From the NCBI GenBank assembly GCA_030753015.1, contig JASMDC010000013.1:25216-89215 (forward strand): 64,000 nt of DNA, written 5' to 3'. The DNA comes from Candidatus Undinarchaeales archaeon (GTDB taxonomy: Archaea; SpSt-1190; JASMDC01). A program made the translations under genes and the position numbers. Below, one piece after another: positions 1 to 54,561 of the stretch. The notes beneath the pieces were generated by a model. It had not been told where the DNA came from. It did not search any database and worked only from the letters and a program-made list of their open reading frames with translations. The number at the start of each line of letters is the position of its first letter. Within the stretch, counting starts at the first letter, position 1.

Positions 1-3000
1 CCGAGCAGGCTATCGCTCACCGTGGTAGGTGTCGTACACACGACGACGGTGTCGCCGGACGACAGTATGACCTCGTCAACAGCCTCTTCACCCTCCACAA
101 GGCCCCGGCGGTCGACAAGGGCGGACGTCACCGTTCCGCGGAACTGGCCCATACCGGTGTTCTCCAACTCCGCGCACCCGACCACCTCCTCATCGAAGAA
201 GGCCCGGTGAGGGCCATCGGGTCCCACTGGCTCTCCCTCCACCTCGAAGATGGTGCTAACCACCCGCAGGTCGGAGAGCTCGTCGCGGACAGCGTCCGCC
301 AGGTCCACGTCCAAGGGGCCCATGCCGTTGCACAAGCACGCGAACCGTCCCTCCTGGGCGTTGAACGCGTTCGTGAACCCTCGGCACCCGTACTCGTCGC
401 GGCAGTACGTCTGCAATGCTCGGTACACGGCTGCGCCTTGCGGAAGTGGGCATGGTCTGCCCGTATGGACGCCCACGGGATCGTCATCCCAGGCACAGTG
501 GCACTCGCCCGCTACGGTACCATCAGCGGATACCGAAGCGCGACAGTAACCGTAGAGGCTTCCCGGGACACCACCGGGCGAGCGGAACATGCTACATGCG
601 TCCTGGCACGAGACCGCCTCATGCACGCGCTCGTAGGGATCCAGACCTCCCCCCTCGATATCGAAGCATTCCGGATCGGGGAAGATCCGGCGGACATCTA
701 GTGAAGCGATGGACGCGATGGTCGCCTGGAGCAGTGTCCGACGTGCGATCTCCCGCCCACGGTCAGCGGCCTTGAGCGAGCAGACCATGGGTATCGGGCC
801 GGGATAGCTGGCGTTGATGATGAAAGCCGTCCGGTCGGCCAGGGTGTCGAACGGATAGGGATGCTCGACATCGCAATCGACCGGGTTCACCGACCAGATC
901 TCATCGGGACATCGCACGCAAGCAGGGAAAGTACCCTGTTCGTTCGGTCCGGTGGTGGGATTGCCGCAGGCGAACGTACAGCTTCCCGGGACGATACCCA
1001 CACCCTCGTCACCGAAGACCGCGCCGTTGGCCGTAGCCAAGGGTCTGTCGCGGAGCGCGTCAGCGATCCGATCGCCCAAGCACTGCTCGTCCAGCTCACC
1101 TTCGGCAGTGCATGCCGGTGCTCCGCGTTCGTGGATGCCCTGGAAGCATCCTGTGTCGTCACCGCCCGTGCACTGACATTCACCGTCGAGGAGCGTCGCG
1201 AGGACCCCTTCGTCGTACTTGGGAGAGAGCATGAACGGTATCTGCTGGTCGGCCTCCACGACAATGTCGTGCGCGATGTCCCAAAGCATTCCTACAGGAG
1301 CGACGGCATCCTCGCTCACTGCGTCAGCTGGCATGTCCCGATAGAGATCGCGTAGCAGGTCAGCCGCTCCCGGCTCGAGGTCGCCACGCGCGGCAATGAC
1401 GAGCTGCTCGAGGAGGAGGCTGAAATCATCTAGGATCAGGTCGGAAGTATCCGCATGTGCGGCCGCCTCGAACAGCTTGGCAGCCACCTCGCCGTTCTCG
1501 AAGGCCACGCAGGCATCATGTCTGGGCTTCCAGAGAGCGACCAACGCGCGATAAGCATCATCGTTGCCCTGGCCGGATTCGGGGAATGGAACGCACGCGC
1601 ATGGATCCATGTCAGGATAGGGCGCGTTTGCAATGCACCTTGACGCTTCCTGCATTCGTTCCCACCCTGCGTCCATCCCCTGCAGTGTTGTGAGATAGGC
1701 GTCCAGGAACGTGTCCATCTCGTCCAGTCGCTCGATAGAACCGCAGGGATTATCTGTGCCTTCTTCCATGATGATGGTGCGTAGGTTGGCCCCCAGTTCG
1801 GCGGTGGGTGCGCCGTTCCATGTGACGTTCGAGGTGAAGACACGCAGACCGCGCAGTGTGCATGCGCGCTTGGTACGGAGGACGTCGCGGACGCAGGTCG
1901 CGATACCCTCGGCGCTGGGTGCCGGCTCGGTACCGGGTGCACCGGGGGCGACTGAATCCCCTTCGGTCATGCAGGTCCCAACACGGGTAACCAATGGGCA
2001 CGCCTCTACGTCGAATCCCTCCCACTGCGTGCATGTGGCCGTGCAGAGTGCGGCAGCGCTAGCATAGCTGAGACCGTCGGCGAAGTACACGGACAGTCCC
2101 GCTTCGTCGTGGTCGGCGATTGCGTTACCGATAAGTGGCGGGGCGTCCTGGTCCGTGCTCGTGCATCCTCCATAGGTCGCCCCGAGCACGCGGACATCGG
2201 CCAGACATCGTCCGCACTGCTGTTCGAGGACGTTGCGGAGCGCAAGCAGGTCGTCGCGCACGCGCGAAAGGAGCGCACGCCGCGCCCGCAGGTAGCCGTC
2301 CAGGTACTCGAGCCTACTAACCTCGCTCTCGTGGTGGAAGGATACGCACCGGCCGTCCGGTAGAACCCTCAACACATCGTCAAGGCACTCCTCTTCCGGA
2401 TCCCCATCCCGGCAGGGCTTTGGGGACCGCATGGCCGCGTCCTGGAGCTTGCCGAGCTCGTCGTCCGGTGACACGGGTACCCACTCGCCATCGCACACGG
2501 CACGGTCGGCCCCCTCACCGCATCTCGGGGTGATATGGACCGCGTCGTTGCCCTCGGCATCGCACACACCGGCCACCGCCAATGGCAGGGTTGCTCGCTC
2601 CCGGTCCCGGAACCGTGCTCCGACAGCACCGCCCTCCGGGGCCAGCCGCCACAGGTCCGCCGAGTACGAGAACAGGGGCTGGGTCCAATCGAGGCCATAG
2701 CCCTTGTTAAGGCTCTGTCTTGCGATTCCGCGCCAGGCACTGTAATGGAGCGCCCGCTGACGCAGGGCGTGCTTGGTCATTCCTGTCGCCGTACCGATGG
2801 CCAATCCCATGTCCTGAAGCACTTCGGTGGCTGTGAGAGAGGTCGCCTTACCCATCACGTCAAGCCCACCGTCCAACGCCTGGGCGTTCACCTTCTCGAT
2901 CGCTTCCAGGACCAGGTCCCGTGCTGCGGGCTGGCCGCCGGACAGCGCTTCTCTCGAAAAGACCCGCTCGAGCGCCTCCCGGATGGGGCCGATGAAACCT

Positions 3001-33124: not shown

Positions 33125-36100
33125 GTGGAACCTATGGAGAATGGGAAGGAACAATCCAGTGTCCTAGTAGAAGGACTCTTGCTGTTGGTACTGCTCCCAT
33201 CGCTGGTACTGTCCACCGAGCTCGACGTCGGCACAAACATAGCCACGAGCGAGATGTACTCCCAGCAGCTGAGGTACTTCAATGTCGATGTGGCCTTCTC
33301 CGACCCCGTACTCACTATGGAGGACGGTTCCACGAGCATCACTATCGAGAACACCACGCTCGTCTCCGAGCCCACGCACCCCATGCTCCCGATGAGGATC
33401 GTCACCCTTTACATCCCTGAAGGGTATCAGGTCTCGTCGGTGGAGGTCATTGAACTTGTGACTCGCTCCCTCGGAGCTGACCATCAGGTTCTGCCCGCCC
33501 CCTACCCCATTAGCCCCATCGATCATAAGCCTTCTGAAAGGAACACCTCCATCTACGGCTCACCGGAACCCTTCCCTCCTCAGTCTTTCATGACGTATGG
33601 GACCCGGCGCCTGATGGGATACAACGTGTTCCAGGTCGCGACCTTCCCCATCACCTACTACCCGATCAATGGAAGTCTACTCTTCCATCCAAGAATCAGA
33701 ATCAGGGCACAGCTGGAGTGGACCGGAACGGAGGGTCCAGGAAAGGAGGAGGAAGAGCGAGGTTTCATCAGCTCGATAGTCGAGAACGACTTCGCGCTCG
33801 AGGAGGGATTCGGAACGCCCGTCGTCCCCGATCACTCGGATTCCGATGGAGCTGGTGAAGGTGAGGGTGAGTCCGGGACCACGGAGGGCGGTGCGGACGG
33901 TGAGGGCGAACCACAGGCGGACAGCGGTCCAACATACGAATACCTTATCGTGTATCATTCACCGACCTTCAACTCCGCCGCGAACAGGCTGGGAACGTGG
34001 AAGTACCAGAAGGGCTACACAGTCGGTCTTGCCTCGACCGCATACTTCAACAGTAATTATGCAGGATATGACCTTGCCGAAAAGATCAGAAACGGTCTCA
34101 AGAACCTCCATGATAACTACGGTACTCAATGGGTCGTTCTCATTGGAGATTACAACTACGTCCCCCCCCGGTGCGGGTATGACAAGAAAGGAACGAACAC
34201 AGGGGGCAATACGGGTTACCTCTGTGACGCTGACTCCACACCAACTGACCTATACTACGCTGATCTCGATAGCGACTGGGACTACGACGGGGACAACCTG
34301 TACGGCGAGTACATCGATGATCACTGGGGCGGGGGAGTCCAGCGCCTCGACCTCACGGCAGAAGTGTACGTAGGAAGGATTTCTGTGTCTGATGCCGACA
34401 CCGCCCTGCAGGTCGTCGACAAGATCATCAAATACGAGAAGGAACCTACGACAGGGGACTGGCTATCGAAGGCCCTCATCCTGGGCGCTATGGCCAACTA
34501 CGACGAGGACACGAACAGCGACGGTCAGGTGGACAAGTTCAAGCGCGACTGGGCCCCGGTCATGGAGCAGCTCAGGACCGACTACTTCCCCGCAGACTAT
34601 TCCCTCACCACCATGTACGAGAAGGAAGGGGTCGCCTCACCCCTGGGACAGTCCACTTACTCATGCACCACGCCCCTCACGAACGACAACGTGAAGTCCG
34701 CTATCAATCAGGGCTACGGTGTCATGACCATGGGCGGCCACGGCGGTAAAACCGACATCTGGAGGGTCATCTGGAGCATGGACGCCGATAGTGACAACAT
34801 CAACGACCCCTCTGAAAAACAATGGTCGGCGTACCTGAAGACGACGGATACACTGTCGAACGCCAACAAGACACCATTCGTGTATACTGCCTCATGCCTG
34901 ACCGCCCTCATTGACGGTTCAAGTGACTCCCTGGGGGAATGGCTCGTCAACCAGCAGTGGTCGGGAGCGATCGGGTATGTGGGAGCGACGCGCACTTCGT
35001 ACTCCGGCATCGGTAGCACCGAATATTACAATCAGAAGCTCGTCAAGCTATTCTGGGATTCGCTCTTCTCAGGGTACTACTCATCGGGCGAGGCGCTCTA
35101 CCGCTCCAAGACACAGTACTCTGTACACCATCCGTTCACAGGTGCCTCGAATGATAATACCAAACTAAGGAACTACTACGACTACATCCTGCTAGGTGAT
35201 CCCGAGACGCCTATCTGGACGGATGATCCCGTTACGGTCTCCTCCACAGGGCTTCCCGAGAAACTCCAGACCGGGCATGCCAATGAATTCGTAGTGATAA
35301 TCAAAGACTCGGAGCAAAGCGCGGTCAATGGAGCACGTGTATCCATATCAGGAGCTGGGACCCATGAGGAAAAGACGACGGATACCCAAGGGAACGCTGC
35401 ATTCACGGGGATCTCGCCCACGTCGGACGGTACCGTGACCCTTGTCGTCACCAAGCACAACCACCTCACGGTAATCGAGGAGGTACAATCTATCACGGAC
35501 AATGACGCCCCGACCACCACGCCCGGAGTAACGGAGGACGGGTGGTACTCCGAGGACCAGACGCTCAGCCTGACATGCGACGACGGTTCCGGTGTGGGAT
35601 GCAGCACGACGTACTACTGCACGGACTCTGTAGGAACGTGCACGCCCGGGACTGTGTACACGCAACCGGTCTCGCTCTCATGCTCGACAGGGAGCATATG
35701 CATCCACTACGTCAGGTACTACAGTAAGGACCAGTTCGACAACGCGGAGTCATTCAAGACGAGCGTGGCTTTCAGGATCGACAAGCAGAAACCGACAACG
35801 ACGGACAGTTCGGATGCGAACTGGCACGGAAGCGACCAGGCCATCACGCTGACGTGCAATGACGGGACCGGCGCGGGATGTGACACCACGTACTACTGCA
35901 CCGATACGAGCGGTACGTGCACGCCTGATACGAATTACACGCAGCCCATCAGCATTACGTGCTCCGCTGGAAGCGTGTGCACAAGGTACGTCAGGTATCG
36001 CAGTAACGACACCCTTGCGAACACGGAGGACGTCAGGACAAGCAATCAGGTCAGGATCGACAAGCAGAAACCGACAACGTCGGACAACTCCGATACGAAC

Positions 36101-39100
36101 TGGCACGGAAGCGACCAGACGGTCACTCTCACGTGCAACGATGGGACCGGCGCGGGATGCGACACCACGTACTACTGCACCGATACGAGCGGGACGTGCA
36201 CGCCCAACACAACGTACTCGCAACCGATCAGCGTCACGTGCTCTGTGGGAAGCGTATGCACCAGATATGTCAGGTACCGCAGCAACGACACCCTTGCGAA
36301 CACGGAGGATGTCAGTACGAGCAATCCGGTGAAGATCGACAAGCATATACCGACCACGACCGACAGCTCTGACGCGAACTGGCACGGAAGCGACCAGGCA
36401 ATCACGCTCACGTGCGATGACGGATCGGGTGCAGGGTGCGACACCACATACTACTGCACCGATATGAACGGGACGTGTACGCCCGACACAGCGTACACGC
36501 AGCCGATCAGCATCACGTGCTCCGCGGGGAGCGTCTGCACGAGGTACGTCAGATACATCAGCAACGACACACTCGCAAATATCGAGGATGTAAAGACAAG
36601 CACGGGTCCCCGCATCGATAACGAGGCCCCTGTCACGAGCTCCAATGTGACGGAAGCATGGCACTCAATGGACCAATGGGCATCTCTGGTGTGTGATGAC
36701 GCCACAGGTGTGGGATGTAACGCTACCGCATACTGCATTGACACAAGCAGCGTATGTGGCTGTACCCCCACCACCATCTACGAAGGCCCGACCAACCTAA
36801 TCTGCTCCCCGGGTAGCGTGTGCACCCACCATATCTGCGTCGCGAGCAACGATTCTCTAGGCAATCTCGAGGAGAAGAGGAACATCGACGTGAACATCGA
36901 CAAATCCGGCATTGTGCTCCGCGACATAATCCTCCCCACGCAGGGAGGCCACTACCGGACACCAACGTCCCTGCCCCTTTCCCTGTCAGTGAACGATCAC
37001 ATCATCGACACGTGCTGGTACACAATCACGTCGACCGTCGGAGGCCGCTCCGTGCACACAATCCCAAAGTGTCAGAACGTCACTCTGGACATCACGACGG
37101 GCTCGTGGCTGGACGACTTTGACGATGGCTCGTGGATCGATAACAGTACATCCCACAACATCACCGTTTCCACCGGGGCGGTCCGACTCGTGCCCAAGGG
37201 CAACTCCACGGCCATTACCGGCAGGCTCCACAGCAGCCGGATCCGACCCATTAATCCTGGAAACTGGGGCCGCTTCACAGCCATCCAGAACGTCAACAAG
37301 TCCCAGGGCTCTGCGATCAGCTATTCGGTCCTGGACGGGGAGACGAACGAGACCTTGTGCAGTACCAACACCTCTAACAGGACTGTTGTGATTGACCTTT
37401 CCTCCTGTCTGAACGGGACCGCTTCGATAGTACTCTCGGCATCGCTCACATCTACGAACACATCGGCCGTGCCAGTTATCTACATGTGGAACGTGACGTG
37501 GTCACGGGCGGACGGCCCCTACGATCTGACGGTCCATGCCAACGACACGACGGGACGCTCCCAGAACAAGTCGCGACAATTCGTTGTCGACACGATCCCA
37601 CCTTCCATCACTTCGCTACTCATCAACGATGATGCCGCCTCCACGTCCACGAGGGACGTCACGCTCAATGCATCGGGCAGCGGGTTCTCGGAATGCAGGT
37701 TCAGCAACGATGGAGCCGAATGGTCCACGTACACTGCCTATAGCGGACCCGCGTCGTGGACACTCTCGGCCGGGAACGCTCAGAAGACCGTCTCTATGCA
37801 ATGTCGGGACTCCGCCGGTAACGAGGCGGTACAGGTCACCGATACCATCGACCTATCGATCCCGTCCAGTGGTGGTGGGAGCAGCAGCGGCAGCAGCAGC
37901 AGCAGCGCGAGCAGCAGCAGTGTAGCCAGTAGCAGCAGCAGCGGGAGCAGCGGTGGTGGTGGTGGAGGCGGCTATTCGCGCCTGAGCTATAACTTCTCGA
38001 TCGAGTGCGACCACCCGGAAATGCTCACGATGGAACCGGGCGGTCGCGCCAAGGTGTCCTGTATCGTGACTGCCCTGGAGACCCAGCTCCCCTCACTCAA
38101 CGTGACGACGGAACCGGTGGAAGGGCTCCATATCTTTCCCGCCATCCATTCCTTCGAAGAGATCCCGTACTGGACCTATAAGGACGCGGAAGAGACCTTG
38201 AAAGATGAACTGGTCGCATACCGGAAGTTCGTTCTCGAGATCAGTTCGGAGAAAAGCTGCAGAACGAGGATAGCTCCGATAAACATAATCGGTAGCTGCA
38301 TCTCGGAGGATGACAGGATCAACGTCACGAACGTGAGCAGGATATTCGCTAAAGTGCTCCCGCTACCGGAGTGTCCCGAGGAGAGTGATGGGTTCTGTCA
38401 GTCTTCGTGTCCTCTGGATGTCAGCGGGTGCGTTCCCGAGACGTGCGAGAACGCTCCCGAGGACTGCGGCCCATGTCCCGCGGACGAGGAAGAGGACGCG
38501 AACACTACGGATGACGAGGCCATCGGGCACGAAAACGTGACCCTTGAAGTCCCTACACCCTCCCCTTCCCAGGAAGCTACACCTGAGCCGACGGTCTCTC
38601 CTTCCCCGACGCCCGAGCCCGAGCCCGAGCCCGAACTTGAACCTGAGCCAAGCCTTGAACCTGAACCCGAGCCGACCCCGGTCCCGAATCCCAATGTAAC
38701 CGAGGACGAGTTCAACATGCATCTTGACGAGACGCGGAGCATCGTGGAGGACCTATCGTCAAGAACTGAGAACGTGACATCCCTCCTAAAGAACGATACT
38801 AAGATGGAGCTCCTGAAGAACATGAACATGGAACAGGAAATCAAACGCAACCTGGATTCCATCGAGGAGCTGTCACTGGAGTTCGAGATCATAACCAGGT
38901 CCAAGCCTGACGACATCATCGACGCCGATCAGCGAATCAGGACGATCAACCAGCGTATCGTTAAGCTCCAGGACACCACGCCCAAGAATATCATGATCGT
39001 GCACAGCTCTCGCCATGTCAGCAGGACGGCGAGACGTTCGAGGGAATCCATTCTCGATGAGATCGTCACGAGAGAGCAGGTCCGCCCGTCACCTCCGCTC

Positions 39101-40222
39101 GAGCGGGACACATCGGGTGAGAGCGAAGGTCCGGTCATTGTGGAGAACGCGTCCATCGTCACGGAGGTCGAGACCGTCCAAACCGAGTACCTGTCAGGGA
39201 GGGTGGAGCGCAAGACCCTGCTCAGTAAGGTGCTCACGAACACGGGGAACACGACACAGTACAACGTATCCCTCATCGTTAGCGTCTCCAAGGATATTGC
39301 AGCCAGGGCCAACCAGCTGGAGTTCAAGGTGAAACCAGTCGTGATCGTCGATGATCCCGTGTTCGGATGGACCATCGCCGAGCTTCCTCCGAACGTGACA
39401 GTGGAACGGACGTTCATGGTTCGAAAGGAACTTGAGTCATCCCAGGTGGAGTCGATCGACGAGGTGATCGTCAGCGGCATCCAGCTCGTTGAGGTCGAGA
39501 AGACTACCCCCTCGTCCGTTGTCACGGCAGGTCTTCCCGAACCGCCCTCCATGGGAAAGCTCATCGCTATAGTGGTCGTGCTCGTTTTTCTATCCCTCTT
39601 CATCTCGAGCGTAGACCTCGGCCGCCGTCCCATTCCACTTGGGGTACCTGATACTGCTTCGCTCCTACAAGCCCATACCGACTCGTGTCCACAACACATC
39701 CCCCTGGACCTCTCGACAGCCGAACGAACGATACCGAGGGAGGAGATGAACGTTTCCAGTATCGTCCGCTACATGAGCGAGGCACCAGAAAGGGGACAGG
39801 GAGAGATCGAAGCGGAACTGCTCGCCCTCGGGTTCTCCCAGCACGAAGTATCGCTCGCGTTCCAGGAACTCGCCGGACGGGCACGGAAGAAGGAAACGAA
39901 CGTATCCAGGATCGTCCTCTTTTTGAGCGAGGCACCGGAACGGGGTCAGGGAGAGATCGAAGCGGAACTGCTCTCTCTCGGATTCTCCCAGCACGAGGTC
40001 TCGCTCGCATTCCAGGAACTCGCTGGACGGGCACGAAAGAAGGAGACGAACGTGTCCAGGATCGTCCACTTTCTGAGCGAGGCACCGGAACGGGATCAGG
40101 GAGAGATCGAAGTGGAACTGCTCGCCCTCGGGTTCTCCCCGTACGAAATATCGCTCGCGTTCCAAGAGCTCGCCGGAAGGGTGCCCGGAGGGATTCCCCC
40201 GAGTTCTTTTCCAGAATATTAG
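33125..40222 (+). CDS. Giant membrane-anchored C25 (gingipain-like) cysteine peptidase, 2365 aa
   Basis: Signal peptide; C25 propeptide (PMLP...IPEG); catalytic domain (VVLIGD, DLYYADLD, VGRI, GGHG, ASCLT, GAIGYVG, LLGDP); Ig domain; Cys-rich repeats; Ser/Gly and PE linkers; TM; cytoplasmic repeats. Confidence 0.9.
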   Translation: MEPMENGKEQSSVLVEGLLLLVLLPSLVLSTELDVGTNIATSEMYSQQLRYFNVDVAFSDPVLTMEDGSTSITIENTTLVSEPTHPMLPMRIVTLYIPEGYQVSSVEVIELVTRSLGADHQVLPAPYPISPIDHKPSERNTSIYGSPEPFPPQSFMTYGTRRLMGYNVFQVATFPITYYPINGSLLFHPRIRIRAQLEWTGTEGPGKEEEERGFISSIVENDFALEEGFGTPVVPDHSDSDGAGEGEGESGTTEGGADGEGEPQADSGPTYEYLIVYHSPTFNSAANRLGTWKYQKGYTVGLASTAYFNSNYAGYDLAEKIRNGLKNLHDNYGTQWVVLIGDYNYVPPRCGYDKKGTNTGGNTGYLCDADSTPTDLYYADLDSDWDYDGDNLYGEYIDDHWGGGVQRLDLTAEVYVGRISVSDADTALQVVDKIIKYEKEPTTGDWLSKALILGAMANYDEDTNSDGQVDKFKRDWAPVMEQLRTDYFPADYSLTTMYEKEGVASPLGQSTYSCTTPLTNDNVKSAINQGYGVMTMGGHGGKTDIWRVIWSMDADSDNINDPSEKQWSAYLKTTDTLSNANKTPFVYTASCLTALIDGSSDSLGEWLVNQQWSGAIGYVGATRTSYSGIGSTEYYNQKLVKLFWDSLFSGYYSSGEALYRSKTQYSVHHPFTGASNDNTKLRNYYDYILLGDPETPIWTDDPVTVSSTGLPEKLQTGHANEFVVIIKDSEQSAVNGARVSISGAGTHEEKTTDTQGNAAFTGISPTSDGTVTLVVTKHNHLTVIEEVQSITDNDAPTTTPGVTEDGWYSEDQTLSLTCDDGSGVGCSTTYYCTDSVGTCTPGTVYTQPVSLSCSTGSICIHYVRYYSKDQFDNAESFKTSVAFRIDKQKPTTTDSSDANWHGSDQAITLTCNDGTGAGCDTTYYCTDTSGTCTPDTNYTQPISITCSAGSVCTRYVRYRSNDTLANTEDVRTSNQVRIDKQKPTTSDNSDTNWHGSDQTVTLTCNDGTGAGCDTTYYCTDTSGTCTPNTTYSQPISVTCSVGSVCTRYVRYRSNDTLANTEDVSTSNPVKIDKHIPTTTDSSDANWHGSDQAITLTCDDGSGAGCDTTYYCTDMNGTCTPDTAYTQPISITCSAGSVCTRYVRYISNDTLANIEDVKTSTGPRIDNEAPVTSSNVTEAWHSMDQWASLVCDDATGVGCNATAYCIDTSSVCGCTPTTIYEGPTNLICSPGSVCTHHICVASNDSLGNLEEKRNIDVNIDKSGIVLRDIILPTQGGHYRTPTSLPLSLSVNDHIIDTCWYTITSTVGGRSVHTIPKCQNVTLDITTGSWLDDFDDGSWIDNSTSHNITVSTGAVRLVPKGNSTAITGRLHSSRIRPINPGNWGRFTAIQNVNKSQGSAISYSVLDGETNETLCSTNTSNRTVVIDLSSCLNGTASIVLSASLTSTNTSAVPVIYMWNVTWSRADGPYDLTVHANDTTGRSQNKSRQFVVDTIPPSITSLLINDDAASTSTRDVTLNASGSGFSECRFSNDGAEWSTYTAYSGPASWTLSAGNAQKTVSMQCRDSAGNEAVQVTDTIDLSIPSSGGGSSSGSSSSSASSSSVASSSSSGSSGGGGGGGYSRLSYNFSIECDHPEMLTMEPGGRAKVSCIVTALETQLPSLNVTTEPVEGLHIFPAIHSFEEIPYWTYKDAEETLKDELVAYRKFVLEISSEKSCRTRIAPINIIGSCISEDDRINVTNVSRIFAKVLPLPECPEESDGFCQSSCPLDVSGCVPETCENAPEDCGPCPADEEEDANTTDDEAIGHENVTLEVPTPSPSQEATPEPTVSPSPTPEPEPEPELEPEPSLEPEPEPTPVPNPNVTEDEFNMHLDETRSIVEDLSSRTENVTSLLKNDTKMELLKNMNMEQEIKRNLDSIEELSLEFEIITRSKPDDIIDADQRIRTINQRIVKLQDTTPKNIMIVHSSRHVSRTARRSRESILDEIVTREQVRPSPPLERDTSGESEGPVIVENASIVTEVETVQTEYLSGRVERKTLLSKVLTNTGNTTQYNVSLIVSVSKDIAARANQLEFKVKPVVIVDDPVFGWTIAELPPNVTVERTFMVRKELESSQVESIDEVIVSGIQLVEVEKTTPSSVVTAGLPEPPSMGKLIAIVVVLVFLSLFISSVDLGRRPIPLGVPDTASLLQAHTDSCPQHIPLDLSTAERTIPREEMNVSSIVRYMSEAPERGQGEIEAELLALGFSQHEVSLAFQELAGRARKKETNVSRIVLFLSEAPERGQGEIEAELLSLGFSQHEVSLAFQELAGRARKKETNVSRIVHFLSEAPERDQGEIEVELLALGFSPYEISLAFQELAGRVPGGIPPSSFPEY
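35495..36900 (+). repeat. 279-bp (93-aa) Cys-rich tandem repeats inside the C25 gene
   Basis: Near-identical units start at 35774, 36053 and 36332 (xIDK.KPTT.D.SD.NWHGSDQ...LTC.DG.GAGCDTTYYCTD..GTC), with degenerate copies on both sides. Confidence 0.9.
39749..40180 (+). repeat. 150-bp (50-aa) triple repeat in the cytoplasmic tail of the C25 gene
   Basis: Units NVS.IV...SEAPER.QGEIE.ELL.LGFS..E.SLAFQELAGR start at 39749, 39899 and 40049. Confidence 0.9.
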
Positions 40223-49526: not shown

Positions 49527-50174
49527 CTAGGTCGGGGCGGTGGGTGCCGCACCATCGCCCGGACATCCTTCTACGAGCCACCGTATGACAGGCTCGCTCA
49601 CCTTTGATCTATCGACCCCGAGCGCGGCCATGATCCCCTCGAAGGGGATATGGTTGCACCTGACCATCGCACGGAGGAGCCAGACGAGCTCGGTGGTCGT
49701 CATGTCAGGTGGCTGTTCGGGGGAAGTGTGCGCAGGACGCTCGCTGTACCGTGTCCCTTCCTGCTCGCGCTTCCGGCGCGGATCAGCGCTGAAGTAGACA
49801 GAGCAGCCCTGTAGCCTGGTACGGACGAGCTGATCCTTCCTGACGCACTCGAGGAGGTGGTGGTGGACGTTGGGGTGGGAGAGGAGGCGCCCCAGCTCAT
49901 AGGCGGTCAGGCCCTGTTCGCTCCCGTCGACAAGGGCGCGGATGGTGGGCCCGAGGTTCTTCCACGCAGAGAACCGGGCGCCTTGGTACTCCCAGAGGCC
50001 GTTCTCGTCGAAATCGGGGGTGGTCGGGGACGTGAGCATCTCACCGTTCATATTGTAGCTGGTGAGGTAGCCGGTGTCCTTGAGCTTCCTGAAGATGGTC
50101 CGCGTCGAGCAACTGAAGTGTCGAGCAAGTCCCTTGGCGCTGATGACCTTGTACGCGTCGAGAACGAGGACCAC
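49527..50174 (-). CDS. HTH protein of a family I recall adjacent to transposases (probable mobile-element remnant)
   Basis: SCSTRTIFRKLK..GYLTSYN.NG, FDENGLW, RFS, GLTAYEL; start codon uncertain. Confidence 0.6.
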   Translation of the reverse strand: MVLVLDAYKVISAKGLARHFSCSTRTIFRKLKDTGYLTSYNMNGEMLTSPTTPDFDENGLWEYQGARFSAWKNLGPTIRALVDGSEQGLTAYELGRLLSHPNVHHHLLECVRKDQLVRTRLQGCSVYFSADPRRKREQEGTRYSERPAHTSPEQPPDMTTTELVWLLRAMVRCNHIPFEGIMAALGVDRSKVSEPVIRWLVEGCPGDGAAPTAPT

Positions 50175-50340
50175 GGATAATTGATCGGTCTTTTCTTCGA
50201 AGATATGTCATAGTATGCGATCCTTGATTAAATCATTCCAGTACTACCAGCGGTAGTAACTATCAGATCGATAACGGACGGCAAGAGACCTGGGATAGAC
50301 ATAATGGGCCGTGCACAGAGGGAGGGATTGGTGAGTCGAC

Positions 50341-50591
50341 GTGTCAACGTAAGCGATGCATGTGATTGATACCGAGGTGTGTATTGATTACCATGACACG
50401 ACATGGTAGCCCCTACAGTCGCAAGCGGGGTGTCAGCATGTCAACGTAAGCGAGGATGATAAGGAAGAGAGGGAGTGCATTGATTACCATGACACGACAT
50501 GGTCGCCCCTACAGTCGCAAGCGGGGCATCAGCATGTCAACGTAAGCGAGGATGATATGGGGGAGTAAGAGTACGTTGATTACCTTGACAC
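50341..50591. repeat. 2.6-unit array, 96-97-bp period, conserved palindromic scaffold plus variable 26-27-nt window
   Basis: TGTCAACGTAAGCGA at 50342, 50439 and 50535, each followed by a variable segment and TTGATTACC(A/T)TGACAC. Confidence 0.9.
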
Positions 50592-50674
50592 AGAACGGGC
50601 GCTTTGTTACGAAAAGCCTACATACCAGCGAGGTCTAGCTCACAGCCTCACCAGGAGTCGTTCTTTATATGTCG

Positions 50675-50736
50675 TTTCCGTTATAAACGGAAATATCGGG
50701 CATTAAATTTCCGTTATGAACGGAAACCTATATAAA
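50675..50736 (+). promoter_or_regulatory. Two palindromic operators plus TATA box for the AAA ATPase gene
   Basis: TTTCCGTT-N3-AACGGAAA at 50675-50693 and 50708-50726; TATATAAA at 50729-50736, about 25 bp before ATG 50761. Confidence 0.75.
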
Positions 50737-50760
50737 CTAGAGATCCCTACTACCTAGTCG

Positions 50761-51915
50761 ATGGAGTTAGAGGAGATACTCCACTACTTCAATCCCTGGT
50801 GGGAGGGAGAGACCGGCTTCCCGGGCATACTGCGGGACGCGTACCTCGACCGGCTCGGGGGGGAGCTCAAGGGCGACAGGCTCACCCTCGTGACCGGACT
50901 GCGACGCGTGGGCAAGACCACCCTCATGAAGCAGCTCATCCACACGCTGCAGGAGGAGGTCGATGCGAACCGTATCCTATTCATCTCCCTCGAGCATTTC
51001 GGCCTTCGTGATGAGCGGGTCTACGACATCATCGATGTGTTCCGCAAGATACACTCCCTCCCTCGAAAGGAGCGGATCTACGTGTTCCTTGATGAGATCA
51101 CCTACAAGGACGACGTGGCACGGGACCTCAAGATAGTCCACGACAACGAGAACGTGAAGCTGGTTGCAAGCTCGTCCTCAGCCACAGGCCTGCACGACGA
51201 GAAGGCTTACCTCACTGGGAGGAACCGGGTGATACGGATCGATCCTCTGGACTTCAGGGAGTACCTGACGTTCACAGGAAAGAAGGCAAGTGGTTCGGAG
51301 CGATATCTCCTTGAATCGTACTTCGAGGAGTACATGGAGTACGGGGGCATGCCAGAGTACGTGCTGACCAGGGATCCGGCGCTCATCCTTGAGCTGGTCT
51401 CTGACATCATCGAGAAGGACGTCATCGCGCGGCACGACGTCAAGGACCGAAGGACGATCGACGACCTCTTCCTCCTGCTGTGCGAACGGACGGGGAAGCA
51501 GCTCACCTACAACCGGCTGGCGCGGATACTGGATGTGAAGCCCGACACCGTGAAGAGGTACATCTCCCTCCTTGAGGAGAACCATCTGTTCTCCGTCCTA
51601 CCGCGTCATTCGAAGAGGTTGAACGAGAGGATCCGCTCACCCAAGAAGGTCTACATCGGCGACGTTGGGATTAGGAACGTGCACACCGGCTTCAGGGACA
51701 AGGGCGCGATCTACGAGAACCTCGTGTTCCTCAGGATGCGCGACGCCGTCCTCGGCTACCTGTACAGGGACGGGACCGAGATCGACTTCGTGACCGACGA
51801 GACGCTGGTAGAGGCGAAGTACAGACACGACCTCCCGGAGAGGCAGGAGGCGCTCATGCGCAAGCAGAGGGGGCGGAAGAGCGTCGTCGCTCGTGGCCAC
51901 GACTTCTTCCTGTGA
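50761..51915 (+). CDS. AAA_14 / DUF4143 ATP-binding protein
   Basis: NPWW, GLRRVGKT, FLDEI, LTGR, YGGMPE, wHTH, PKKVYIGDVG, YENLV, EIDFV...VEAK. Confidence 0.92.
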   Translation: MELEEILHYFNPWWEGETGFPGILRDAYLDRLGGELKGDRLTLVTGLRRVGKTTLMKQLIHTLQEEVDANRILFISLEHFGLRDERVYDIIDVFRKIHSLPRKERIYVFLDEITYKDDVARDLKIVHDNENVKLVASSSSATGLHDEKAYLTGRNRVIRIDPLDFREYLTFTGKKASGSERYLLESYFEEYMEYGGMPEYVLTRDPALILELVSDIIEKDVIARHDVKDRRTIDDLFLLLCERTGKQLTYNRLARILDVKPDTVKRYISLLEENHLFSVLPRHSKRLNERIRSPKKVYIGDVGIRNVHTGFRDKGAIYENLVFLRMRDAVLGYLYRDGTEIDFVTDETLVEAKYRHDLPERQEALMRKQRGRKSVVARGHDFFL

Positions 51916-52069
51916 GCTAGAATACTGTCTTGGAAGATGCTATCTCCCTATTAACTTGGGATTCCCTGTCGTCTCCCATGCCCGAGAAAGCATGTCATCC
52001 GGTATATAAGTCTTATCCGGCAGGTGTCATGCTAGTGTAGTGACGGGCCCCGTGCCCGTATGTGGCCCC

Positions 52070-52774
52070 TCAGCTGCTCTGGCCGCCTATGAGGGCGATA
52101 CCGTTCTCTCCGATCTCGTAGGTGAGGAGCTTGATGGGCGTCTTGGTCCCGCGCATCTTCACGATGTCCATGGCCCGCTCCCGCTCGCCGGTGTATGGAT
52201 TGTCGCGCTTCACGAGCCGCAGAGCGCCATAAACGGAATACTCGGCCGAGTCCTGGAAGTTGCGTGACGTCGCCGCGTCGAGGATGATGAGGGCGGTGAC
52301 GTCGAGCTCCTTGAGCATGTACACCAGAAGGTCCAGCTGGTCCTTGAACTGGTACTGGTCCACCTTGGCGGCATAAGTGCCCAGGCTGTCGAACACCAGC
52401 ACCTGGGTCTCGTCCGGTGCGTGCTCGAGGATGTTGGAGAAGTTGCCTGTACGTACGGCAGTGGCCATCTTGTTGGCACGGTCGATGGACTCGACACGCT
52501 TGCCCGTGAGCTCGATGATGGAAAGGATACCCTTCTCCTCAAGGGCGTCCAGGTCCCAACCGAAGCCCTTGGCCTGGAACTTCAGGTCGGCCGCGTCCTC
52601 CTCGCTGGTGATGTACACCGTCCGCTTCCCCTGGTCACAGCAGCTCTTGGCGAACTGGAGACCGAGGATGGTCTTTCCACAGCCCGGCTCGCCGGTGAGC
52701 AGCACGGTCCGTCCGGCGGGGATGCCTCCGATGATCTCGTCGAGTCCCGCTATCCCGCTCTTGATCCTATCCAT
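52070..52774 (-). CDS. Single-domain KaiC/RAD55-family ATPase
   Basis: GIAGLDEII, GEPGCGKT, SEE, FDSL, IVKMRGT. Confidence 0.9.
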   Translation of the reverse strand: MDRIKSGIAGLDEIIGGIPAGRTVLLTGEPGCGKTILGLQFAKSCCDQGKRTVYITSEEDAADLKFQAKGFGWDLDALEEKGILSIIELTGKRVESIDRANKMATAVRTGNFSNILEHAPDETQVLVFDSLGTYAAKVDQYQFKDQLDLLVYMLKELDVTALIILDAATSRNFQDSAEYSVYGALRLVKRDNPYTGERERAMDIVKMRGTKTPIKLLTYEIGENGIALIGGQSS

Positions 52775-52853
52775 GATGATCAGCTCTTGTGAAGATTATC
52801 TACTTGGAGCATCAGTTTTTTATGTGCTTGGTCGGGGCAGTGGACCCGGAGGC

Positions 52854-53555
52854 TTACACGTCCATCTCGATCTGACTCGTCAGGCTGATCCCGCCCTTGC
52901 TGATCTTGTAGGACAGCAGCTCCACTGGTGTCGCCGTTGAGCGCATCTTTACGATCTCCATGGCCCGCTCCCGCCGGCCGGTGAAGGGATTGTCCCGGCG
53001 CATCAGGCGGATGGCCCCGTACACAGAGTACATGGCCATGTCGTCGAAATGCTTGGAGGTGGCGGCGTCCAGGATGACCAGGCAGGTGATCTGCCGCTCG
53101 GCGAGGTTGTACAGCAGCAGGTCGAACTGGTCCTTGAAGTCGTAGGCTGTGACGTCTGCCGCGTAGGGGCCGAGGCTGTCGATGATCAACAGTTGCGTCC
53201 CATCAGGAATGTGCTCGATGAGGCCGGCGAAGTTGCCCTTGGCGACATCCGAGCCGATGCGTACCGAGAGTTCGATCTGCTTGGTACGCTTGCCCAAAAG
53301 CTCAACGAACGTCAGGAGCCCTTTCTTCTCAAGGTCCCAGCCAAGCGCCGTGCACTGGAGCCGGAGGTCGGCTGCGGTCTCCTCGCTCGAAAGATAGACC
53401 GTCTTCAATCCCTGCTCGCACCCGCTCCGAGCGAACTGCAGCCCCAGCACGGTCTTTCCGCAACCAGCCTCGCCCGTAAGCAGAGTTGTCCTGCCCACAG
53501 GGATGCCCCCGAAAAGATCATCGAGCTCCTTGATGCCTATCTTGATCCGTTCCAT
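52854..53555 (-). CDS. Single-domain KaiC/RAD55-family ATPase (paralog)
   Basis: Start ATG 53555 (MERIKIG); GEAGCGKT, SEE, IDSL, IVKMRST. Confidence 0.9.
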   Translation of the reverse strand: MERIKIGIKELDDLFGGIPVGRTTLLTGEAGCGKTVLGLQFARSGCEQGLKTVYLSSEETAADLRLQCTALGWDLEKKGLLTFVELLGKRTKQIELSVRIGSDVAKGNFAGLIEHIPDGTQLLIIDSLGPYAADVTAYDFKDQFDLLLYNLAERQITCLVILDAATSKHFDDMAMYSVYGAIRLMRRDNPFTGRRERAMEIVKMRSTATPVELLSYKISKGGISLTSQIEMDV

Positions 53556-53560
53556 GTCGA

Positions 53561-54493
53561 TCACTTCCCCTGCAGCCTGATGTCGAACATGCACGACTTC
53601 GCCCCTTGGGCGATGGTGCCCGTGACGCTCACCTCGCCCTTGAGCTTGGTCCATGTGAAAGTCCGGGTGACCATGGCGCGGCAGATATTGCAGAAGATGG
53701 GGCTGCCCTTTGCCTCATCGAGCCAGGGACATCGCGAGATCTGAACGGCGAGCTCATCCGGTCCCCCTGTACGCTTCGCGTGCGAGCCGAGGCCGTCGTA
53801 GAGTCCGTCCAGCCACGAGAAGAAGGCGTCAATAGCGAGGTCATCGTCGATGTTCCGGGCCACCCTCGAGTAGGGCGATGCACGCATCCGACCGAGATGG
53901 ACGTCGAACCGTTCCCGCATATTGCGATCGAACCTGTCTGCGAACGAATGGAGGAGCATGGTCCGTGCTTGCGGGGGCACTCCGGCCGCGAACACGGGGA
54001 GCGCGCTCGCCAGCAGGCTGAACACCTCGGCCCGGGCCTCGCGCTCGGTGAGCTCGTATGCCTTGAGCCGCGCGGTGATGTCGCGGAACACGATGGCGAC
54101 ACCGGAAATCTCGTCCCGTTCGTCCCTGATGAAGGCAGTATTGAGGCTTACCGGCACCCGCTTGTCACCCTTTGTCACTAGAAGGGTGTCCCGGTCATAG
54201 GTGACGCCCTCGTTCCGCTCGAAGGTCAGTGCGACCGGGCAGGTCATTGGCGTCCGCGAGCCCTCGTCCTCGAGCACGATGAGCTCGGAGATCCTCTTAC
54301 CGACGACCTCCTCGAAGGTATGTCCGGTGAGGGCCTCTGCTGCAGGGTTCATGAAGGCGATGTCACTGTTCTTGTCCGTTGCCACCACGGCGTCGGCGAT
54401 GCTGCGAAGGATGATCGACTGGCGCCGTTCCTCACGGGTGTGGTCGTGCCCGGACCGGTCCTGATCCCCTTTCGATGATGGCCTTCTTCCCAT
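53561..54493 (-). CDS. PAS domain plus V4R/methanogen-output-domain-like protein
   Basis: PAS (MNPAAEALTG...EVVGK...VFRDIT); C-terminal CPW...PIFCNIC...IAQGAKSC. Confidence 0.85.
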   Translation of the reverse strand: MGRRPSSKGDQDRSGHDHTREERRQSIILRSIADAVVATDKNSDIAFMNPAAEALTGHTFEEVVGKRISELIVLEDEGSRTPMTCPVALTFERNEGVTYDRDTLLVTKGDKRVPVSLNTAFIRDERDEISGVAIVFRDITARLKAYELTEREARAEVFSLLASALPVFAAGVPPQARTMLLHSFADRFDRNMRERFDVHLGRMRASPYSRVARNIDDDLAIDAFFSWLDGLYDGLGSHAKRTGGPDELAVQISRCPWLDEAKGSPIFCNICRAMVTRTFTWTKLKGEVSVTGTIAQGAKSCMFDIRLQGK

Positions 54494-54561
54494 CCTTGCT
54501 CACCTCAGGAGTGGAATGTCACCTTTATACGTGCTAGCCAATGAGAGCGGCGGGACAATCA

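Follow-up and report, generated by a model that had tools for sequence, protein, structure and literature searches.

What is the role of a short tandem array of long-period repeats that lies between a helix-turn-helix (HTH) gene and an ATPase gene in an archaeal genome? This question is raised by a stretch of 64,000 nucleotides (hereafter, the window) from a Candidatus Undinarchaeales archaeon (assembly GCA_030753015.1, contig JASMDC010000013.1, positions 25,216 to 89,215 of the forward strand), in which an initial annotation had described a conserved scaffold enclosing variable segments and had proposed either a guide-RNA array with programmable loops or iterated DNA sites such as transposon ends or attachment sites. 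Our follow-up points to a different assignment. We think that the array acts in cis, as DNA, by presenting a series of split inverted-repeat binding sites, probably for the adjacent winged-helix regulator, and give this sequence-based reading a rough probability of 45%. It is thus closer to the second of the two earlier proposals, with the difference that a protein would bind the iterated sites, which would be neither transposon ends nor attachment sites.

The array, whose homology limits are about 50330 and about 50605 of the window, comprises 2.7 units with a period of 97/96 bp. Tandem Repeats Finder (TRF) reported it at 50379–50591 (period 96, 2.2 copies, 88% matches, score 335), and this result and the exact arm positions agreed with the period and location first described; the extent given at that time, 50341–50591, correctly covers the core, while the homology extends wider. 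Each unit is built from a 15–17-nt left arm, a variable segment of 26–27 nt, and a 16-nt inverted right arm. The left arm TGTCAACGTAAGCGA, a 15-mer, has three exact copies, at 50342, 50439, and 50535 (97 and 96 nt apart), and with up to three mismatches it had eight matches in the whole window against 1.15 expected, a number reached by 0 of 100 shuffles. The right arm, TTGATTACC[A/T]TGACAC, lies at 50384, 50480, and 50576, with four matches against 0.23 expected. On the plus strand, unit W1 occupies 50340–50399 (left arm 50340–50356, variable segment 50357–50383, right arm 50384–50399), W2 occupies 50437–50495 (50437–50453, 50454–50479, and 50480–50495, respectively), and W3 occupies 50533–50591 (50533–50549, 50550–50575, and 50576–50591). 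Two 37-nt linkers (50400–50436 and 50496–50532, plus strand), identical to each other at 34 of 37 positions, join the units. The G+C content is 0.52 over 50000–50999, compared with about 0.60 around it.

The variable segments of W1, W2, and W3 are 27, 26, and 26 nt long and read as originally quoted, W2 and W3 differing at 8 of 26 positions. The description of their flanks as imperfect inverted repeats was also borne out: when the arms were aligned over 16 positions, 81% of the 96 cells could pair, compared with 25–46% when the partner was slid by one to three columns. Likewise, the outermost arms, said to bound the array as related sequences, are 92% complementary (50341–50352 and 50580–50591). 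The arms conform to the consensus TGTCA-W-S-GTAA-N-C-R-A, and their centres are some 42–43 bp apart, which would be close to four helical turns.

We then compared the genome carrying the window (G000; 3.85 Mb, 117 contigs, 60% G+C) with a genome of the same genus, G001, which encodes an HTH ortholog with 77% identity and has two units (G1A and G1B) at the same place. The flanks pair W1 with G1A and W3 with G1B and leave W2 as the extra unit in G000. The arms were identical at 16/17 and 15/16 positions in the W1/G1A pair and at 16/17 and 16/16 positions in the W3/G1B pair, amounting to 63 of 66. The variable segments of these pairs matched at 12 of 29 aligned columns (41%; both 27 nt long) and at 18 of 26 (69%), respectively. 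The putative promoter block of the HTH gene with its palindrome aligned without a gap at 74 of 86 positions, and the linkers were 72% (linker 1) and 79% (linker 2) identical to the G001 linker. The spacer between the palindrome and the array retained 32 of 80 identical columns (40%) with 40 gap columns, and its length was 79 nt in G000 versus 41 nt in G001. All six variable segments in the two genomes, including that of a dispersed unit described below, are 26–27 nt long. Since neutral DNA at the same divergence has been scrambled and has changed in length while the arms stayed near-invariant, the arms and the arm-to-arm distance are, judging from these alignments, under selection, and the sequence of the variable segments largely is not. 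An operator array is expected to show sites conserved beyond the neutral background beside the promoter of the factor's own gene, and the arms (63/66), set against the spacer (40%), show this pattern.

The same comparison bears on the possibility that the array is functionless repeated DNA, in which the units are duplicates made by slippage or unequal recombination, a further copy on another contig (C63) arose by short-homology recombination, and the conservation of the arms is selfish or coincidental. We regard this as unlikely. The extra unit W2 does indicate that the copy number changes by duplication, and the differences among the variable segments fit unconstrained drift, as the initial annotation had anticipated for a simple tandem duplication in neutral decay; this drift, however, has occurred under a length constraint, the arms having kept their sequence and the segments their length beside a spacer that kept neither. 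Moreover, the orthologous pairs W1/G1A and W3/G1B predate the species split, and a diverged paralog of the HTH gene on contig C57 is preceded, in the corresponding position, by an array of equal period.

The array is also stable on a shorter time scale. Contigs from three sequencing runs of three studies bridged it completely with zero differences, and a fourth run covered part of it; the runs containing array DNA were marine or seawater metagenomes, with no RNA run listed among them. The array being identical in contigs from four studies, it is a stable feature with no strain-level turnover, at the level of contigs, in which rare variants can be hidden. CRISPR arrays, which consist of direct repeats of about 23–50 bp and unique spacers of similar length, vary in content between strains. 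The present array resembles them in the alternation of conserved and variable segments. It differs in having a repeated part of about 70 nt (arms plus linker), a variable part of 26–27 nt, and three units, as well as in its invariance among studies and in the presence of orthologous "spacers" at the same positions in two species; the earlier statement that it is not CRISPR-like in size therefore stands. No Cas effector was found by PADLOC among eight nearby proteins, the screen covering these eight rather than the whole window, and the one match returned was a weak Csa3-like HTH match (E = 4e-4).

Which protein might bind the arms? The HTH gene (49527–50174, minus strand, from the open reading frame [ORF] list) starts about 170 bp from the array, so that the repeats reach from 170 to 430 bp upstream of it, and it encodes a 215-aa protein (P0001) with two predicted winged-helix domains. 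Profile searches yielded a weak HTH_11 match in Pfam and a weak ArsR match in NCBIfam. In the AlphaFold model (mean predicted local distance difference test score, 85.6), a winged helix-turn-helix (wHTH) domain at residues 1–48 is followed by a beta hairpin, a second wHTH domain at residues 74–129, and a helical C-terminal part. A structure search matched residues 72–137 to wHTH chains of the MarR/ArsR type with Z scores of 8–9.5, and tandem winged-helix proteins matched the model at weak Foldseek scores. Because the matches are to generic MarR/ArsR-type and tandem winged-helix structures, the model identifies the 215-aa protein as a DNA-binding-type protein of no named family. No viral relatives of it were found, and PADLOC and PHROGs searches with this protein and the downstream genes gave nothing useful. 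The neighbours first reported, an HTH gene and an AAA/DUF4143 gene, were both recovered, whereas the label "transposon-associated" for the HTH gene was not upheld: no transposase or integrase was found beside it among the genes scanned, and its Pfam match is weak and generic.

The region between the HTH gene and the array contains additional candidate control elements. The block at 50175–50260 (minus strand), conserved in G001 as described above, would be the promoter of the HTH gene, with TTTAAT on the minus strand as its TATA box; a CATACTAT(A/G) motif immediately before the start codon is common to the paralog promoters. Within the block, a look-alike of the arms is located at 50206–50235 on the plus strand (TGTCATAGTATGCGA, 3 nt, TTGATTAAATCA); its stretch 50206–50220 matches the left arm with three mismatches, and the whole resembles a unit with a collapsed variable segment. 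A palindrome, TACTACC-AGC-GGTAGTA, lies at 50242–50258, between the array and the promoter, and is followed by the unconstrained spacer (50261–50329; 79 nt when measured to the first arm).

On the basis of these features, we propose the following mechanism. Three split sites, each consisting of two 15–17-bp arms held 26–27 bp apart and repeated every 96–97 bp upstream of the promoter, would most likely be bound by the adjacent double winged-helix protein, which would occupy each arm and bridge the arm pairs, giving a multi-protein complex on the array. The complex would control the protein's own operon, comprising the HTH gene and, downstream on the same strand, a 226-aa zinc-ribbon ORF and a gene for a 633-aa protein resembling clusters of the MJ1566_N family (a literature search for "MJ1566" found no paper). 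The variable segment would then be a spacer whose length matters and whose sequence mostly does not. The binding-site reading is favoured because the arms and the promoter are conserved while the variable segments and the spacer diverge, the segments at a maintained length, because the two-winged-helix model is confident, and because an arm look-alike in the promoter and the stability of the array fit such a role.

The array also accompanies the gene family, both at the G001 ortholog and at one paralog, and this association, together with a palindrome common to these loci, is a further reason for the binding-site reading. G000 encodes five paralogs of the HTH protein (38–49% identity), and none was found in the 15 further genomes of the class. 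One of them, on contig C57, is a protein of 224 aa with 40% identity to the 215-aa protein, and directly upstream of its gene is a second, non-coding tandem array (L067 1101–1344; C57:2562–2805; period 97, 2.5 copies, 80% matches) that ends about 100 bp before the start codon. Its sequence is particular to this paralog, its units containing a compact pseudo-palindrome, CACGCTATAGTGCG, that is not split. When TRF was applied to the whole genome (408 rows), a period of 96/97 was found for the present locus (contig C22) and the C57 array, plus three rows at C26 and C59, two loci that also yielded rows with shorter periods (66 and 48). In the two genomes, the sequence TACTAC-N5-GTAGTA with a G+C centre is confined to three places, all between array and promoter: the C22 locus, its G001 counterpart, and C57. 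The bare TACTAC-N5-GTAGTA is not rare, with four sites in G000 (every site being counted once per strand) versus seven for a reversed control.

Other family members provide a broader context. The C11a paralog and a truncated paralog on C62 are each preceded by a conserved non-coding segment of some 170 nt (L066 ~2330–2500, minus strand; L070 ~1235–1400), which has no Rfam match and may be a further cis element of the HTH family or a mobile-element end. Homologs of the 226-aa and 633-aa genes are also found near the C11a paralog. Among 14 members of the HTH family, one gave a weak AbiEi_4 match (E = 2e-4), and look-alike clusters of unnamed proteins exist in many bacteria; homologs with 84%, 78%, and 69% identity (P0003, P0004, and P0006) were also found. 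A bacterial genome labelled Wallbacteria (L085, L093) encodes two distant HTH homologs, each followed by a diverged copy of a protein of about 634 aa; this partner has no Pfam assignment and no relation to the genes found downstream in the archaeon.

We also examined how widely the element occurs. There are four units in G000, three in the array and one dispersed, and two in G001, so the scaffold does recur elsewhere, upstream of the G001 ortholog and once on C63. Among 401 archaeal genomes, a pattern of the array type matched in two alone, G000 and G001, and it had no match in viral contigs; a BLAST search of the 271-nt array against 41 relatives produced a convincing match in G001 only. The next BLAST match, in G023, sits in seemingly coding sequence of an unrelated genome and was discarded. 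The dispersed unit (L002 476–594) has the 3′ end of a gene on either side, one gene being of the histone-deacetylase family and the other small and convergent with it; by eye, it consists of one 101-nt period with TCGCCCC at both bounds and fills nearly the whole intergenic gap. Such a layout would be expected if a one-period circle had inserted at a microhomology, and it favours the functionless-repeat account, as do the low copy number of the element and its occurrence in 2 of the 401 archaeal genomes. Scans of genome and metagenome contig collections used a pattern ending in TTNACCNTGACA, which fits only the C63-type right arm (TTTACC) and not the array type (ATTACC); these scans therefore say nothing on the range of the array type, neither its presence nor its absence. 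The C63-type pattern had 0 loci in genome contigs and three in metagenome contigs, one of which (L062) is identical to the C63 unit, while the other two (L061 and L063) look like chance matches in seemingly coding sequence.

Could the array act as RNA instead? In this alternative, which we consider clearly unlikely, the array is transcribed, most likely on the plus strand and in divergent orientation to the HTH promoter, to give a noncoding RNA with several hairpins whose loops are programmable or sponge-like, as in a guide array or in a CsrB-like decoy for a protein or for pyrimidine-rich RNA. CsrB and RsmZ are sponge RNAs with rows of GGA-bearing hairpins, and the array, if transcribed on the plus strand, would likewise be a row of hairpins with purine-rich, GGA-bearing loops. 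The arms can indeed pair, and loop length is maintained despite changes in loop sequence. Purines account for 113 of 159 bases (71%) of the variable segments on the plus strand and for 76 of 107 in the four least related ones, versus 54% locally, and GGAG, GAGG, or AGGA is present in five of the six, an asymmetry beyond what a plain spacer calls for. The unconserved spacer beside the array (50261–50339) is likewise purine-rich (53/79, 67%), so that the bias may be a regional property. The location of the C63 unit in a 3′ intergenic region would also suit an RNA element.

Tests of structure, however, gave the RNA account little to build on. Rfam 15 yielded no relevant match at E values up to 10 over 49900–51000 and no match at E values up to 0.1 in six related loci. 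The 281-nt array region folded no better than shuffled sequences (z = −0.28 on the plus strand and −0.13 on the minus strand). In the arm helix, the covariation that the initial annotation had suggested looking for was not seen: 0 of 16 pairs had changed on both sides and nine pairs never vary, in a set of six sequences that affords low power. Two mismatches were conserved (C.C in 6/6 units and G.A in 5/6), and a change at pair 9/55 in the C63 unit breaks a pair formed by three other units. This conserved left–right asymmetry of the arms suggests that each arm is recognised as a sequence and has not been selected for pairing. The linker hairpin described earlier exists in G000 but is disrupted in G001, and at C57, unit 2 of the array does not, by eye, retain the hairpin predicted for unit 1. 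Unlike the bacterial sponge RNAs, the array is found in an archaeal host; no CsrA gene was found in G000 by a search that was positive in control genomes, and no promoter was identified for the array. On present evidence, with no Rfam family, shuffle-like folding, no compensatory change, a broken linker hairpin, and an invariant array, it should not count as a guide-RNA or CRISPR-like array.

Recombination sites, the other function first proposed, seem quite improbable. The units would here be attC-like folded strands or att-like sites that mark a hot spot of gene-cassette exchange. Integron attC sites carry the core motifs RYYYAAC and GTTRRRY at their ends and have an IntI integrase nearby. 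The imperfect inverted repeats, conserved mismatches, and variable centre of the units do resemble attC, and the array is situated at a synteny break, where about 4 kb in G000 stands against one 404-aa gene in G001, of which G000 has a 3′ remnant. By eye, however, both core motifs are absent from the arms, and no transposase or integrase/recombinase was found among the neighbouring genes scanned. In addition, the "cassettes" would be only 37 nt long, and the array did not vary among the four studies. The nearest transposon-type gene to a unit is a TnpB-like fragment with a Cas12f1-like TNB domain, 1.1 kb from the C63 unit with the deacetylase gene between them.

A coding function appears highly improbable. 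Each unit could be read as a micro-ORF of about 20 codons, with a TTG or ATG start in the right arm, a Shine–Dalgarno-like GGAG or GAGG in the variable segment, and a stop in the next left arm; such frames are present in W1, W2, W3, and G1A, with Shine–Dalgarno-like cores 4–13 nt upstream. The 2-nt difference in linker length in G001, however, shifts the frame after five codons, so that the orthologous peptides are unrelated, and the peptide composition is not kept.

Three further candidates were considered and rejected. A miniature inverted-repeat transposable element or an element derived from an insertion sequence was discounted in view of the few copies (four and two units) and of flanking short direct repeats that were, by eye, inconsistent between units. 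For a K-turn or box C/D motif (GCGA...TTGA, GAUGAUA), the bulge has the wrong length and the C63 unit has no 3′ GA (by eye). Adenine-directed variation as in diversity-generating retroelements was not convincing, with five of the eight W2–W3 differences at adenines (by eye) and no reverse transcriptase seen.

Among known systems, the array would by analogy be most like protein-binding repeat arrays, that is, iterons or operator arrays beside an autoregulated winged-helix gene, and it is not filed as an origin. Iterons are about 17–22 bp long, spaced by about 22 bp, and located beside an autoregulated rep gene (RepA, RepE, and pi plasmids). Both iterons and the array are direct repeats that adjoin the gene of a two-winged-helix protein (here according to the model), with a separate inverted repeat or palindrome at that gene's promoter and a repeat sequence specific to the paralog. 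The array departs from them in its period of 96–97 bp as opposed to about 22 bp, in its units, which are split inverted repeats with a free centre of 26–27 bp, and in its locus, which is chromosomal and syntenic in two species. Rep structures were not among the fold matches listed for the HTH protein, which does not exclude a Rep fold, and no AT-rich unwinding region, DnaA/Orc boxes, or other replication genes were identified, though no dedicated search was made for them.

A second parallel is the AbiEi antitoxin, reported to be an autoregulated wHTH protein that binds several inverted repeats in its own promoter (PMC7319586). AbiEi and the 215-aa protein have in common an N-terminal winged helix with a second domain and several inverted repeats upstream of their own genes. 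They differ in that no AbiEii-type nucleotidyltransferase follows the HTH gene, the zinc-ribbon and MJ1566_N-like genes being found there instead, and in that the array repeats are long-period tandem units 170–430 bp upstream and not inside the promoter. In a literature search on archaeal tandem repeats, winged helices, and autoregulation, nothing comparable was present among the matches listed, as far as their texts were available.

Several observations weigh against the binding-site reading. The C22 and C57 arrays have no significant sequence in common, their best score being reached by 60 of 300 shuffles, so that the equal period could be coincidence; a string found in both, GGGGCGACC(A/G)TG, was rejected as not significant on the same count. 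The C57 array also does not have the scaffold-plus-variable-segment layout, its differences being evenly spread, nor does it resemble its own promoter, with a score that 395 of 1000 shuffles reach. The full-length paralogs C11a and C11b have no tandem array upstream, nor was an array found at the two distant bacterial homolog loci examined; the proposed co-occurrence of array and HTH homologs thus applies to G001 and, with an array of unrelated sequence, to C57, but not to these four loci. The similarity between promoter and units is marginal and should be taken as a hint, since it was reached by 41, 104, and 220 of 1000 shuffles for the three units of G000 and by 17 of 1000 in G001. The position of the C63 unit between the 3′ ends of convergent genes is an odd place for an operator, a plain spacer leaves the purine richness of the variable segments unexplained, and the conservation was measured in a set of two species and six units.

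The surroundings of the array contain other features. Beyond W3, a tail at 50592–50640 consists of a partial linker-like stretch and then the 3′-end remnant of a gene (31 of 49 aligned columns identical to G001); the last codons and stop of the G001 404-aa gene, which carries nucleoside 2-deoxyribosyltransferase domains, align to this remnant at about 50618–50636. The G000 segment opposite that gene (about 50640–54560, some 4 kb) encodes a DUF4143 ATPase, two KaiC-like proteins, and a PAS-MetOD1 protein. The gene of the AAA_14/DUF4143 ATPase (50761–51915) is the neighbour of the array on this side, and just upstream of its ATG and of a TATA-like box (50729–50736), the palindrome TTTCCGTTAT(A/G)AACGGAAA occurs twice, at 50675–50693 and 50708–50726, 33 bp apart. 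These are the sole two copies in the genome, and by their sequence they look like a private operator pair of the ATPase gene. Elsewhere in the window, an ORF at 33125–40222 encodes a protein of 2365 aa with peptidase C25 (gingipain-type) propeptide, catalytic, and Ig-like domains. As to the host, G000 and G001 have sizes of 3.6–3.8 Mb and 60% G+C, whereas the other 15 genomes of the class measure 0.6–1.2 Mb. Contamination of G000 is put at 5%. The genus is either a highly unusual lineage with large genomes or a case in which placement or binning should be checked.

What would these assignments mean? There is a slim prospect that the C22 and C57 arrays give rise to multi-hairpin RNAs whose purine-rich loops, fixed in length and free to change in sequence, serve as exchangeable guides or decoys for a partner encoded in the adjacent operon (the double-wHTH, zinc-ribbon, or MJ1566_N-like protein); if so, they would constitute an RNA-programmed system of a new kind, in an archaeon with a large genome. 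If instead the arrays are binding sites for winged-helix regulators, as we favour, they would represent an unusual layout of archaeal gene control, with long-period units of 96–97 bp and arms four helical turns apart, used by an uncharacterised protein family with several paralogs and with an own array at each of two of them. A defined DNA target would then provide a first handle on the function of this HTH family and of the genes downstream of it.

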